Shown here in pieces: positions 4,658-25,407 of a stretch of 39,264 bases of DNA (its first letter is position 1; the number at the start of each line of letters is the position of its first letter). This stretch comes from a virus (taxonomy: Duplodnaviria; Caudoviricetes). The notes under the pieces were generated by a model. It saw nothing but the letters and a program-made list of their open reading frames with translations, was not told where the DNA came from and made no database searches. Both the position numbers and the translations under genes were made by a program. The DNA lies in the IMG/VR virus record IMGVR_UViG_3300048889_000043, positions 1-39,264 of that record; one strand, 5' to 3'.

Positions 4658-4868
4658 GCCAACTGTTTCGCAAGCTCTTTATTCGCATCTGCTCGTAGCT
4701 CGAGGGCTGATCGATTGCATTAATGATAACATTCCCAAATCGATCTATGGCATGAAAACTATGCAAGCGATTTCGGGAGTGCTATTTGAATTAGAAGGAC
4801 TTAACCGGGCAATGCTTTTTGAGCTCGGCGACCACGATAACCCAGATACAGATGCAGATTGCTATTAA
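4650..4868 (+). CDS. Hypothetical protein
   Basis: GAGGA RBS before ATG 4650; overlaps rusA stop. Confidence 0.6.
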   Translation: MNKPTVSQALYSHLLVARGLIDCINDNIPKSIYGMKTMQAISGVLFELEGLNRAMLFELGDHDNPDTDADCY

Positions 4869-4887
4869 ATTTTTATGCGTGTATGCT
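4859..4887 (+). promoter_or_regulatory. Candidate promoter of the cargo cassette
   Basis: TTGCTA-N17-TATGCT about 25 nt before ATG 4913. Confidence 0.4.
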
Positions 4888-4912
4888 AAAGGAAAATCAA
4901 CCTGAGGCATAC

Positions 4913-5307
4913 ATGCAACCAACAAATTTTGTAGAGAAATATCAAACTTTTCTAACTCAAAAAGAAGAGCTCGATAAAGCGGCTTTTATAGACATCAAGC
5001 CCATAAATGAAGTCCCCAATCCAGCAAACCTAAGCGTTCCTTCTTATTTATTTCATATGGTTTTTGACGTATTAAGAAATCTAGATAGCAAAACAGATTT
5101 GGAATATGAAACCCTGCGCGTTAAGCTTATGGCTATTGATCTTTATTGCCCAAATTATAAAAAAGGCATAATTATAGTCGCTTCATCAATCTCTATTTTT
5201 GCTTATTCTGTTTTTTTTTACCCCTCAAATGCAGCTTCTTCCTTGCGTTAATAAGCTTAATGGCTTCTACACACGTATATCAACAATTTAAAAAGGCTTA
5301 TTCATGA
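4913..5307 (+). CDS. Membrane protein with a T9 frameshift site; Inc-like bilobed hydrophobic C-terminus in the -1 frame
   Basis: 0-frame stops at 5251; -1 shift at T9 (5211-5219) gives GIIIVASSISIFAYSVFFLPLKCSFFLALISLMAST...KKAYS ending in an ATGA overlap with the next gene. Confidence 0.55.
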
Positions 5308-6314
5308 ATCCAACTTCTTCTGACCTTATAGATAAATATCACGGCGTCACAGATCTCAAAAAAGTTACTTTCGATAAAATCCCCGAATGCGAAGAAAGAC
5401 TTGTTTCACGGTACAGCAAGCTAGAGTTTTTTAGAAAAGAATACACATATGAAGAAAAAAATGAGATCTATCTAACATGTTCAGTTTATAACGCATTCGC
5501 TACAACTAAATGCGTGGGAGCGTGTGCAGCTATAGGAGCTATTGCCGGCGGTTTAGTTGGTGGCGTTGTTGCCGGGCCTCCAGGAATTGCAACCGGAGCG
5601 TCTATTGGAGGAAGTGCAGGAGTTTTTACAGGATTTGGAGTTTCATATAAAAAGGGATATATTTCTTCCGAACATCCCGAATACATTAATTTTTGTGTAG
5701 GAAAAAACCCTAAGTATAAAGCCTTTGAAGACAAGTTCGACAAAAAGCAATATAAGCTTTTTTTCTATTTCCTAAATAACCATCTTCAAAACTTCAGTCC
5801 TGCCGAACTTAAGCAGCTAGATGCTTTCATTTGCCCTATTACCCTTGAAATTCCTCGTATACCTGTTTTCAGTCCTCACGACATCTACAGACAACACCCA
5901 TTTGAAAAAAGCGCTATTGTATCCCATCTCGAAATCATAGAAGAGAAGGTTCGCGTTGCTAAGGCTTCCGGATATGATGATGATTATATTGATGCTATTC
6001 GAATTAATTCCGACCCGTTAAGAAGAGCGCCTTTTGTTAAATCTGAGTTAGTTTATGATGCTCAATACACAAGAAATGTGATTAAGTTTTTGAAAGAAAT
6101 TTATGAAAACATGAAGCCAAGAATTACTGAAACTGACGACCCGATTTTGATAGAAGGAATGCTAACGCTTATTGCTTACTATTGCTTGACGTATAGCGAT
6201 GCAACTGACGCTATTGTCTCTAAGCTAAGGAACGACATTATAAAGCTTGGTGGAACGTATGAAAGAGCGGAGGCGTTAGGAAACTTGCTAAAAGTTAACC
6301 TGTCTAAAGTTTAA
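5304..6314 (+). CDS. Putative effector: glycine-rich hydrophobic segment plus U-box-like E3 ligase domain
   Basis: GAIAGGLVGGVVAGPPGIATGASIGG (~5511-5645); FICPITLEIPRIPV...HPFEKSAIVSHL...DPLRRAPF..SELV (~5826-6060). Confidence 0.7.
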   Translation: MNPTSSDLIDKYHGVTDLKKVTFDKIPECEERLVSRYSKLEFFRKEYTYEEKNEIYLTCSVYNAFATTKCVGACAAIGAIAGGLVGGVVAGPPGIATGASIGGSAGVFTGFGVSYKKGYISSEHPEYINFCVGKNPKYKAFEDKFDKKQYKLFFYFLNNHLQNFSPAELKQLDAFICPITLEIPRIPVFSPHDIYRQHPFEKSAIVSHLEIIEEKVRVAKASGYDDDYIDAIRINSDPLRRAPFVKSELVYDAQYTRNVIKFLKEIYENMKPRITETDDPILIEGMLTLIAYYCLTYSDATDAIVSKLRNDIIKLGGTYERAEALGNLLKVNLSKV

Positions 6315-6315
6315 G

Positions 6316-6355
6316 AGTTAGCCCCCGAAAGCATTCCGGCCAAGGGGGCATAACT
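6316..6355. terminator. Hairpin between convergent genes
   Basis: AGTTA-GCCCCC ... GGGGGC-A-TAACT. Confidence 0.5.
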
Positions 6356-6855
6356 TAATCGCCTGTTACATATTCATGTAGCCTGCTCTTTCCACTCATT
6401 ATCAAGCAATGGCCATATTTCTTCATTTCAGGCATCAGCATTTCATCAAAGAGCCTCCCCCCTATGATTGCGCAAATCCCGTAAACAAACGCTGTATCGA
6501 GCTCTAAACGATTAAAATCATATATCATCTGGCCTCGTATCGTATGCACCCGTGTTATCGCTTCTGTAGTCTCAATTTTCATAAGAAGCTGTTTTATTTC
6601 TTCCTCATGCTTTATTTCCATGTTTAGAGACATGAAATACTGCAATAAGTCAATGTGCTTGCGTGTGCACATTTCAATATCGTTTTTCAGATCAATAAGC
6701 GCTTCAATTGTTATTTGATTGTCACTTTGATGTCTGCAATTTAATAGCCTCATCGTCGGAATCTCTAGGATTAACGAACATATTGCTTTCTTCATCTCGC
6801 TTCCTTCTATTTGCGCGGTTAATAATGCAATGCACAGTGCGCTCTTACCTAACAT
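6355..6855 (-). CDS. Hypothetical protein
   Basis: 166-aa ORF, GGGGAG RBS, end of leftward operon. Confidence 0.65.
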   Translation of the reverse strand: MLGKSALCIALLTAQIEGSEMKKAICSLILEIPTMRLLNCRHQSDNQITIEALIDLKNDIEMCTRKHIDLLQYFMSLNMEIKHEEEIKQLLMKIETTEAITRVHTIRGQMIYDFNRLELDTAFVYGICAIIGGRLFDEMLMPEMKKYGHCLIMSGKSRLHEYVTGD

Positions 6856-9127: not shown

Positions 9128-9367
9128 CTACTTGTTTTGTTCTTCTTTTGCTAAAATCAATCCTTGTTCGGCAGCCTCAAGGCAATGATCTAGCATGTTA
9201 TAAAACTCCTGTGTATTGGGCATAGCTTGCAACATTACGCACAAGCTTAAGGTGGTACTCATCATTGCGTATTGCTGCATGGACACCTTTTCTCTCCACG
9301 GCCTCATAAATTCCATGTAAGCGGATTGAAATTCGGCTTGTGTTTGATCATTTATAGCGTCACTCAT
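9128..9367 (-). CDS. Hypothetical protein
   Basis: AGGAG RBS, ATGA coupling to upstream gene. Confidence 0.7.
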   Translation of the reverse strand: MSDAINDQTQAEFQSAYMEFMRPWREKVSMQQYAMMSTTLSLCVMLQAMPNTQEFYNMLDHCLEAAEQGLILAKEEQNK

Positions 9368-9549
9368 TGTTTATTCTCCTTTTTTCTTTCTTCAATAGTG
9401 CATAATCTTCCATGAAAATCTTTAATCTCAGCGTGTATAGCATCAATCAAAGCTCTTGTTTCTCTGTAATCCGATCTAGATTCTGTACGAGCCCATAGAA
9501 ACAGCGCTATATTCGAACTCATGATAAATATTGCTTGTGTCCAGTCCAT
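9364..9549 (-). CDS. Small membrane-anchored coiled-coil protein
   Basis: AGGAGG RBS before ATG 9549; MDWTQAIFIMSSNIALFLW...EIKDFHGRLCTIEER. Confidence 0.75.
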   Translation of the reverse strand: MDWTQAIFIMSSNIALFLWARTESRSDYRETRALIDAIHAEIKDFHGRLCTIEERKKENKQ

Positions 9550-17467: not shown

Positions 17468-18376
17468 CTACTCTGTTTTTTTGGTTTCCCACCATCTTTT
17501 TTCTAATGTCTGTCGAAGATATCCTATTACGTTTGTCATGTGTTTGCGTTGTTCTTTCTTCTTTTTCATCTGCATTTCTACGTAAGCTGACGCTTTTTTT
17601 ATGTCATCAATCGAATAATTTTGCACGAATTCAAGGGCAGATTTTTCGTCACATCCAATTTGCATAAACCAATTGAAGGCTTTTCTCTTAAGTTCGATAG
17701 CAGGAGTCATGTCTGGCGGATCAACAAAAATATCTTGAGAATTTAAAGAACACACAGGCGCAGGAGCTTCGACTGCTGGTTGTTGTTCTTTAAACAAAGG
17801 GTTTTTGTTAATAGGGTTATCTATTGTGTCATGTGGTGACAGTGCTCCCTGTGAGGCGCCGTCATGTGGTGACAGTGCCTGCCCGGCGCCGTCATGTGGT
17901 GACAGTGCCCTCTTTTCTGGAACGAATTTTTTTGTCATCATATACGCTCGGTTATAACGCCAAATATCTGTTAAAGTAATTTTATGATAGATGGTAGAAT
18001 TTTTCTTTATGTCATTTTCAATCTTGTTCTTTTTGCATTGATGAAGAATGATCAGGGGCTTCCCATCGAATTCATTGAAATTTTGCGTCAGTTCTTTTTT
18101 TGCATTAGACACTGATCCAGCGCTCATGTTGCAAATCTCGGCTAAATTGTCTCGGTTCATCCAGCATGCGCCTTCTTCTCCAGCAATTCTCATTAGGACC
18201 CGATATAGTTCTTTCGCGTGTACAGATAATCTTTTTTTTGTTTCTTTACCGTTTTCATCAATCACGTTGTAAGTAAGATGGTCGATAATATGAGGCACCA
18301 TTGCAAAATGAGATGGCTGCGGATTTTGAAAGTGAATTGAGTAGAGTTCGGCTGGGCTTATAGAGTTTTTAGACAT
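17468..18376 (-). CDS. Replication initiator-like protein (N-terminal wHTH, internal iterons)
   Basis: FAMVPHII...LSVHAKELYRVL...CWMNRDNLAEICNMSAGSVSNAKKEL; ALSPHD x3; C-terminal NVIGYLRQTLEKRWW; AAGGA RBS before ATG 18376. Confidence 0.75.
   Translation of the reverse strand: MSKNSISPAELYSIHFQNPQPSHFAMVPHIIDHLTYNVIDENGKETKKRLSVHAKELYRVLMRIAGEEGACWMNRDNLAEICNMSAGSVSNAKKELTQNFNEFDGKPLIILHQCKKNKIENDIKKNSTIYHKITLTDIWRYNRAYMMTKKFVPEKRALSPHDGAGQALSPHDGASQGALSPHDTIDNPINKNPLFKEQQPAVEAPAPVCSLNSQDIFVDPPDMTPAIELKRKAFNWFMQIGCDEKSALEFVQNYSIDDIKKASAYVEMQMKKKKEQRKHMTNVIGYLRQTLEKRWWETKKTE
17828..17908. repeat. Three 18-bp iterons inside rep
   Basis: GTCATGTGGTGACAGTGC at 17828, 17861, 17891; each holds GTCA-N5-TGAC; AT-rich tract adjacent at ~17789-17825. 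Confidence 0.9.
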
Positions 18377-18399
18377 CGATAGATTCCTTAGATTTTCAC

Positions 18400-18516
18400 T
18401 TGCTTTTAATCTAAGATCTGCTATGATGAGAGAGCTTAGATTCGAAGAGAGTGCAATTTCAAACAATCAAGCAAAATTCGAGGGCTGCCTTTCTGAGGGG
18501 TGGCCCTTTTGTCTTT
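18400..18516 (+). ncRNA. Candidate counter-transcribed RNA in the rep leader
   Basis: TTGCTT-N16-TATGAT with TG extension (18400-18427); hairpin 18481-18507 with G-U pairs only on plus strand, then TTTGTCTTT. Confidence 0.5.
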
Positions 18517-24696: not shown

Positions 24697-25407
24697 ATGC
24701 AATATAGAAATGGAAAAATTATAAGCACAGCAGCGGCTTTTACGCTTAAACTAGGCTTTGTTCCAGATAAGATTATTCTTACTAATGATACGGTTCTTCA
24801 AGCTACTCCTAATTTAACTGGAGTTGGTATATCAACCTGGAACAAATATTTACCAAATGGATATGCAAACATTACCACTTATACAGCTGGTGTGCCTGCA
24901 ATATCCACAATAACAACTAATGGTGTTACGCCAGTTTCTCTTGGAGCTGACTACCAAAACACTATTTATACAATTACAGGAATCACTAACGCGGCTCCTG
25001 GCGTTGTTACAGTCTCAAACTTAACGCCTACAAACTCAATGACTCTAGTGAATGGCATGACTGTCACTATCTCTGGGGTTGTTGGAATGACAGGTGTTAA
25101 CACTAACCGCTTCATCGTGGCTCAGATCTCCGGCAACACGTTTATGCTTTACGACACGTTCGGTAATCCGTTCTCTACTGTAGGGCTTGGAACTTATGTA
25201 TCTGGTGGTCAATTGGATGTGATTTCGTATCCTCCAACAGCTCCGACTTTGGATCCTGTAACAGGTCAAGTGTTGATCCCTGGAAATCCAGCAGGTCTTC
25301 AACTAGACATTGGTTATGCAGGTGTAACTTTAGGAACAGGTGTTATGGGCTCTAATAATGACGTTATCTTCTGGGAAGCGTTCTTAATGACCCCGACAGG
25401 CTGGTAA
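24697..25407 (+). CDS. Virion structural/decoration protein with inserted E1-FCCH-like domain
   Basis: LGFVPDKIILTN; ITGITNAAPGVVTV...GMTVTISGVVGMTGVN...GTYVSGG. Confidence 0.65.
   Translation: MQYRNGKIISTAAAFTLKLGFVPDKIILTNDTVLQATPNLTGVGISTWNKYLPNGYANITTYTAGVPAISTITTNGVTPVSLGADYQNTIYTITGITNAAPGVVTVSNLTPTNSMTLVNGMTVTISGVVGMTGVNTNRFIVAQISGNTFMLYDTFGNPFSTVGLGTYVSGGQLDVISYPPTAPTLDPVTGQVLIPGNPAGLQLDIGYAGVTLGTGVMGSNNDVIFWEAFLMTPTGW

Follow-up and report, generated by a model that had tools for sequence, protein, structure and literature searches.

Among the described systems close to the locus analysed here are the NleG effectors of EHEC, which according to the accessible part of the source are U-box-type E3 ligases encoded on lambdoid prophages, delivered by type III secretion and organised in a large mobile family (PMC3530523). 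Legionella LubX is presented, in the accessible text of another report, as a bacterial U-box protein that uses host E2s (PMC12591485). For environmental chlamydiae, the available portions of two reports describe Neochlamydia NEX1b as an N-terminal RING/U-box joined to LRRs (PMC4209131) and Simkania SneRING as an active, membrane-associated ligase with an N-terminal zinc RING (PMC12591485); members of both families passed a type III secretion assay (PMC4209131, PMC12591485), a phage location is not reported in these portions for either protein (PMC4209131, PMC12591485), and a 2014 scan covered there recorded no chlamydial RING/U-box protein besides NEX1b (PMC4209131). Furthermore, the eukaryotic association module of phage WO, as outlined in the accessible text, places eukaryote-like domains in a phage whose host is an obligate intracellular bacterium (PMC5062602). 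Phage-borne U-box effectors, eukaryote-like modules in phages of intracellular bacteria and chlamydial RING/U-box proteins are thus already known. The locus described below is interpreted by us, with moderate confidence, as a mobile cassette of tailed phages with a likely chlamydial host, encoding a predicted membrane-anchored U-box ligase that would be exported onto the ubiquitin system of a protist.

The window (the whole stretch of DNA that was analysed, a virus record of 39,264 bases) represents a soil phage that is 99% complete (CheckV) and encodes terminase, portal, major head protein and tail-fibre genes; relatives of the major head protein carry the name N4-gp56 family, and the closest GenBank phage capsids are <33% identical to that of the window. 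Given the presence of head and tail genes and the lack of any tape-measure or sheath match in the window annotation, the phage is probably short-tailed. With regard to a temperate lifestyle, it has a XerD-like recombinase and a ParB-like gene, and neither a CI-type repressor nor an att site was found in the window. The gene of interest (product P0001; Table 1) closes a plus-strand run with a helicase and two RusA-like genes and is met by an opposing minus-strand run (an orphan, ParB-like, HTH and XerD-like recombinase genes), at the junction of convergent operons that an initial sequence-only reading had described. Elsewhere in the window we observed a replication-initiator-like gene lying on the opposite strand between terminase and portal (17468-18466, -), whose cluster occurs in 30/41 phage records (40 relatives plus the window; G019 and records >40 kb covered in part). 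The gene that follows the capsid gene (24697-25407) has an E1_FCCH Pfam match (E 7e-7); the gene is core and probably structural, and the match is no evidence of a ubiquitin function. A small ORF (9367-9546) returned only viral clusters in the Atlas.

Table 1. Features of the cassette and of its flanks (window positions)
Feature	Position	Strand	Remarks
Candidate promoter TTGCTA-17-TATGCT	4859..4887	+	sigma70/sigma66-like, weak, 8/12, found by eye (bar of the scan: 9/12)
RNA hairpin	4876..4917	+	-22.5 kcal/mol, z -5.0, 0/200 shuffles as good
Upstream orphan ORF, 112 aa	4913..5251	+	one predicted membrane helix near the C-terminus (about 5165-5221)
P0001, 336 aa	5304..6314	+	N-terminal helices, glycine-zipper hairpin, split U-box fold, C-terminal helices
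Glycine-zipper helical hairpin, predicted membrane anchor	5493..5651	+	residues 64-116; model, hydropathy and conservation
U-box-fold domain	5820..6098	+	residues 173-265
Helical insertion within the U-box	5931..6011	+	about residues 210-236; missing in some family members
Hairpin between convergent genes	6314..6356	+	z -3.1, 1/200 shuffles as good; no U-run

An exhaustive protein search with P0001 recovered 79 proteins (E <= 0.001), while a word-indexed search returned the query alone or 2 proteins. P0001 belongs to an unnamed family with a fixed hairpin-plus-U-box architecture; 58 of these 79 matches extend over the glycine hairpin as well as the U-box region. A profile built from 37 members and run against 177,635 PDB sequences placed U-box proteins at the top (LubX, NOSIP, plant U-box, Prp19 and CHIP being its best matches), with E-values of 2e-8 for LubX (two domains summed) and 2e-5 for NOSIP, the latter providing the best single-domain match (i-E 5.6e-5). 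With a second alignment of 28 members, enriched in short inserts, single-domain matches to plant U-boxes reached E 1e-8 and both U-box halves aligned across the gap. The Pfam U-box cut-off (21.4 bits) was passed by 18/25 relatives, including the closest one (P0003, 21.8 bits), a proportion that is not a family-wide rate, the 25 being drawn mostly from the short-insert-enriched set; the U-box genes of G016 and G037 pass it as well. The family spans plain, uninterrupted U-boxes (P0054, P0070 and those of G016 and G037) and insert-bearing ones. P0001 itself matches the Pfam U-box at E 0.0053 over profile positions 3-70 and, since its 17.3 bits fall below the cut-off, we file it as U-box-like (split).

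The AlphaFold model of P0001 (pLDDT 82.5, pTM 0.64), compared by VIA with whole RING/U-box chains, gave Z-scores of 6-7.5 and rmsd values of 1.8-2.9 (3lrq: Z 7.4, rmsd 2.5 over 82/82 residues; CHIP U-box 9ye9_B: Z 6.4, rmsd 2.3 over 73/73 residues), a Z <8 being in the range reached by chance helical matches, and the first rank being taken by an unrelated helix pair. Foldseek with the whole model returned nothing at E <= 0.001 from PDB and BFVD. In view of these Z-scores below 8 and of the non-significant Foldseek result, our fold call rests on the agreement of sequence and structure, from which P0001 almost certainly adopts a U-box fold; the profile searches and the model thereby recover the U-box/RING fold that the sequence-only reading had proposed for this region. 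No feature match to P0001 was found in the Atlas, where structure rows had TM <0.3 by query (below the bar) and 3/10 came from U-box clusters; no PHROGs or NCBIfam family matches the protein, and the comparison with plasmid sequences yielded no real match (one at E 0.6).

At the residue level, the 336-aa ORF was found as the same reading had described it, with the quoted motifs at residues 175-188 (FICPITLEIPRIPV), 198-209 (HPFEKSAIVSHL) and 237-249 (DPLRRAPF..SEL). Its insert of some 30 residues is real and slightly shorter: relative to U-box 1 of LubX, the domain carries about 25 additional residues, some 22 of them following the central helix and 4 in a loop. The conserved residues of the U-box are C177, I179, P187, I205, P238, R240, F244 and L249, with R240 kept in 27/37 members. 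C177 (35/37) is the only conserved Cys and P0001 has no CxxC pairs; by model and conservation it thus shows the U-box trait of a RING-type fold devoid of zinc ligands. The residues of loop 1, central helix and loop 2 (among them I179, I205 and P238) are those that we take to face the E2; they are I/L in 34/37 members at position 179, I/L in 37/37 at position 205 and Pro in 34/37 at position 238, and the E2-facing positions of the family align to LubX and plant U-boxes. The arginine three residues past the loop-2 proline (P238) presumably acts as linchpin; P0001 has Arg there (R241), as do 7/37 members, and 19/37 have Gly.

This last position bears on whether the protein transfers ubiquitin at all. 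It could instead be an exported, membrane-anchored decoy or scaffold, whose split U-box binds E2 or substrate without transfer and dampens host ubiquitination at the vacuole. Such a role would suit the Gly of 19/37 members at the linchpin, the position of the insertion behind the central helix (also seen in the alignment with NOSIP) and the identity of the second-ranked LubX-type match, which is U-box 2, the substrate-binding one of LubX. We nevertheless regard it as unlikely, given that P0001 itself carries the arginine, that plant U-boxes solved with E2 have Gln at the same position (7xed) and that textbook uninterrupted U-boxes (e.g. P0054, P0070) occur within the family; an active ligase is predicted with good confidence over a decoy.

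The long Gly-rich hydrophobic segment noted in the sequence-only reading models as a two-helix hairpin; Kyte-Doolittle 19-mers reach 2.0 in its hydrophobic first helix and 1.2 in the second, which is weakly hydrophobic, and G78, G82 and G110 are conserved at >=90%. Chlamydial Inc proteins carry a bilobed hydrophobic domain of 40-60 residues; the present hairpin has 53 residues and is of the glycine-zipper type, with the two hydropathies just given, and the Pfam matches of the 37 members included no Inc family. The content of Ser/Thr/Pro/Asn in the first 25 residues is barely enriched (0.30 over 55 members, against 0.28 over 799 core phage proteins), and by this composition no clear secretion signal was seen in the family N-termini, that of the G016 subtype being Ser-rich.

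The membrane ORF that had been placed ahead of the 336-aa ORF is real (one hydrophobic 19-mer, 1.9 on the Kyte-Doolittle scale). Judged from the sequence, its start is more likely ATG 4913, with TGAGG five bases upstream, than TTG 4859. It has no match in Pfam, PHROGs or NCBIfam, and no homologue among 6967 ORFs of the 41 phage records. Of the upstream promoter proposed earlier, a weak candidate recognised by eye stands, and the promoter scan listed zero plus-strand sites at its bar. The 3' arm of the hairpin that overlaps this candidate masks the AUG of the upstream ORF together with part of its Shine-Dalgarno site, and may block translation from read-through transcripts; transcripts from the candidate promoter would start within the hairpin, and for this reason only they would keep the ribosome site free. 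The proposed downstream hairpin, likewise, is real and a possible terminator; it was not listed by the terminator scan.

In 7/7 carriers examined and in G028, the U-box gene is closely preceded by an orphan ORF of 93-206 aa in the same orientation, and these partner ORFs contain a hydrophobic 19-mer of at least 1.7, a value that is reached by 49/244 background orphan ORFs of 90-190 aa (51/244 at 1.6) and that was chosen as threshold after looking at the data; G084 ends too near to be judged. No homology was detectable between the partner ORFs of different carriers. The G016-type pair was seen in five loci (two of them identical in protein) and three gene contexts; its U-box gene is 86-89% identical (dN 0.03-0.09, dS 0.6-1.0, dN/dS 0.05-0.12) and its partner ORF is also constrained. 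This pair is under strong purifying selection and moves as a unit. In an independent soil run, 5/6 base differences from the window within P0001 were synonymous, a weak indication (single contigs, depth 3).

A pair of small genes for membrane proteins, found at differing positions in phages, is a common layout of exclusion cassettes. The resemblance of the present cassette to that layout, along with the occurrence of glycine zippers in pore formers (Hbl L1, E 0.0014), would fit a membrane protein that faces the bacterium (in superinfection exclusion, abortive infection or the countering of a bacterial ubiquitin-like defence) and uses the U-box as an interaction module. We hold this to be quite improbable, considering that eukaryotic U-boxes and an effector directed at eukaryotes give the best sequence matches, and that the predicted E2 face is conserved; the protein probably acts in a eukaryote after export from the bacterium.

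A capsid search of IMG/VR recovered 117 relatives, of which the best 80 are 70-94% identical to the window's capsid. The family profile identified five real carriers among the records of these 80 (G013, G016, G037, G046 and G028, the last being truncated by the end of its contig), and 4/33 capsid-selected phage records that are at least 90% complete carry the gene. Matches in G011, G019 and G077 were dropped, as they involve the glycine-rich stretch only (in G011 and G019, which were checked, it belongs to another gene). Family-directed scans added G084, G085, G086 and four loci of the G016 subtype. The sites of the cassette vary, at least five being represented (beside the recombinase, behind RusA, ahead of the terminase, ahead of the portal and behind the tail genes). 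On the capsid tree (37 rows, poorly resolved) the 8 carriers need 7 label changes, as in shuffles, and starred branches force 4 changes. In 7/22 family clusters looked up, the longest contig is 35-45 kb, the size of these phages. No joint skipping the cassette was seen in contigs aligned to the window (the gaps in runs X3 and X4 being uninformative), and the direct repeats bracketing it amounted to chance-level pairs. The patchy carriage and the variety of sites bear out the earlier description of a moron-like accessory gene on a tailed phage.

All 12 loci seen in context besides the window are phages, and no chromosomal copy of the U-box gene was seen among the loci in context. This distribution could also point to a protein that is aimed at the eukaryote while serving the phage directly, freed at lysis or packed in the virion and helping particles to leave or cross the protist cell, much as has been proposed for the eukaryotic association module of phage WO. 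The lack of a clear secretion signal would agree with it, as would the weak likeness of the hairpin to the glycine-rich parts of a putative ejection protein in the clade and to a crAss cargo protein (E 0.058). However, carriage by 4/33 near-complete relatives implies that the gene is dispensable for the life cycle, and in most cases the cassette either sits outside the virion operon or runs counter to it, which makes a phage-serving protein decidedly unlikely in our view; we retain export by the bacterium as the favoured route.

As to the host, evidence comes from genes of the phage group and of other carriers. In G086, a pGP6/CT583 gene (PF03677, E 4e-64; L117:11097-11768, -) lies about 200 bases from the cassette, and 120/120 of its plasmid matches are chlamydial. 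In G085, a pGP7/8-type integrase (L116:11964-12926, +) is 52-65% identical to chlamydial pGP7/8, with 120/122 matches in named chlamydial genera and 2 in unlisted 'Candidatus'; the available text of one source reports the pGP7/8 family as exclusive to chlamydiae (PMC7846284). The capsids of G085 and G086 are 43% and 23% identical to the window's, with 16 and 9 shared gene clusters, respectively. Closer to the window, a small gene (100-123 aa) in G010, G013, G016, G020 and G085 matches only a Protochlamydia plasmid among 72,556, and both G013 and G016 are carriers whose capsid is 90% identical to that of the window. Moreover, a confinement of the homologues to free-living bacteria and phages was not encountered: P0009, which groups with P0001, bears a Parachlamydiaceae bin label and represents the 1/22 family clusters looked up that has a taxon name (with a contig of 11 kb, it could stem from a phage fragment that was placed in the bin). 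A tandem-HTH gene, present in 23/41 records including G013 (L084:5976-6374, -) and missing from the window, presumably resembles chlamydial EUO. EUO is listed, in the accessible part of the source, as Chlamydiales-specific (PMC1403754). The tandem-HTH gene gave no PDB, plasmid or literature match and hit only the generic HTH_17 and excisionase models.

From these genes, the phage group very probably infects chlamydiae, and the phage of the window likely infects an environmental chlamydia. The intracellular host proposed by the sequence-only reading hence holds, as chlamydia-type, at the level of the phage group and through carrier genes; the window's own genes gave no chlamydial marker, and three of its proteins had no chlamydial match among plasmids. 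The same effector role in another host (e.g. Legionellales, Dependentiae or a soil bacterium that lives freely and encounters protists) would accord with this lack of a marker, with an Ada gene flanking a related prophage (best plasmid match Legionella, 67%, then Listeria, 63%) and with the labels of three genome bins that hold the capsid gene (G001-G003, free-living genera). The chlamydia-only genes of carriers, one of them in two phages with a capsid 90% identical to the window's, and the chimeric look of the phage-host join in G001 render such a host very improbable. An Acidobacteria host for G001 was rejected, its phage lying at the contig start and being joined mid-gene to 59% GC DNA (a probable chimera); the G002 and G003 bins hold short phage contigs.

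Several further observations concern the relatives. pGP6/CT583 and pGP7/8 integrase are chlamydial plasmid core genes and their presence on the tailed phages G086 and G085 suggests that these are phage-plasmids, a point of relevance to the viral origin that has been proposed for pgp7/8. On the Simkania plasmid pSn (L268:6836-8615), HTH, small hypothetical and Bet genes match the phage group at 38-53%, and the module may be a remnant of a phage of this group. A clade member with a shortened replication gene lies beside Ada and an 813-aa orphan (L185:132-4893) and adjoins non-phage genes on a 110-kb contig, with one flank seen; it is a possible integrated prophage. De novo, the most shared palindrome was one of 17 bases, found at 1-3 copies per genome in 10/41 records (G004, with a capsid identity of 94%, G006, G014, G024, G027, G069, G073, G084, G085 and G086), in none of the shuffles and not in the window. 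In L032-L036, L076, L078, L082 and L083 the capsid match spans 1165-1312 bases vs 942, which suggests an intron or intein, and three capsid genes lie 40.3 kb apart on one 111-kb contig (L188-L190), probably because a circular genome was assembled as a concatemer. Accessory genes include a DXD glycosyltransferase with a weak TcdA/TcdB-type domain match in G011 (L123:18927-19697, -), further orphans of effector-like look in G010, G030 and G055, and a GroES/Cpn10-like gene (L129:1426-1713, +) that occurs in 10/41 records.

Beyond the fold, architecture, mobility and selection found above, we propose the following for host, temperate state, export, topology and catalysis. The phage would be carried integrated or plasmid-like, and both genes would then be transcribed from a promoter of their own; export of the protein would fall to the type III system of the chlamydia, its glycine-zipper hairpin would settle, Inc-like, in the inclusion or an organelle membrane, and the U-box would face the cytosol and recruit an E2 of the protist, with substrate choice possibly being set by the flanking helices or by the small membrane partner. 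The phages known from chlamydiae are for the most part small ssDNA phages. Of tailed phages, the accessible text of the source mentions only prophage remnants for them (PMC7846284). The present data point to tailed phages of ~40 kb as an abundant group with predicted eukaryote-directed ubiquitin tools, which, if true, would constitute a route of effector exchange among isolated intracellular symbionts and might account in part for the expansions of ubiquitin genes in Parachlamydiaceae. A broader picture, which we offer tentatively and consider doubtful, is that tailed phages of environmental chlamydiae, as a large and undescribed group, form a mobile reservoir of Inc-like ligases, in which a phage-owned effector rewires the protist vacuole membrane for phage persistence or release, in a three-layer conflict between phage, bacterium and eukaryote with the cassette swapped as a unit. 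Furthermore, the family offers natural pairs of plain and insertion-bearing U-boxes, with which one can directly test how the insertion affects E2 use.

In searches of the open-access literature we found no description of the U-box family, its architecture or the phage group. With NleG, as far as the accessible account allows comparison, P0001 shares a phage-encoded U-box-type protein, its own ligase role being predicted; it differs from NleG by its glycine-zipper hairpin, its canonical-sequence U-box with an insertion, its other phage group and its likely chlamydial host. The NleG family was not listed in the Pfam scans of members or among the PDB profile matches. LubX (PDB 4wz3), the top PDB sequence match of both family profiles, has two tandem U-boxes, whereas P0001 has one, which is split; LubX is exported by Dot/Icm, its gene is chromosomal and, to our knowledge, it lacks a membrane hairpin. 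The N-terminal split U-box of NOSIP (PDB 8c6j_CN) is likewise interrupted by a helix right after the central helix, a likeness that may be convergent, NOSIP being eukaryotic, spliceosome-associated and devoid of a membrane hairpin. NEX1b and SneRING, as characterised in the available portions of their reports, resemble P0001 as RING/U-box ubiquitin-related proteins of environmental chlamydiae; P0001 departs from NEX1b in that its U-box is central and no LRR family was found in the 37 members nor LRRs in the model, and from SneRING in its lack of Cys/His ligands (one conserved Cys). Finally, relative to the eukaryotic association module of phage WO, in the form given in its accessible description, host phylum, phage and domains are all different, and the large multi-gene module is replaced here by a two-gene U-box cassette.
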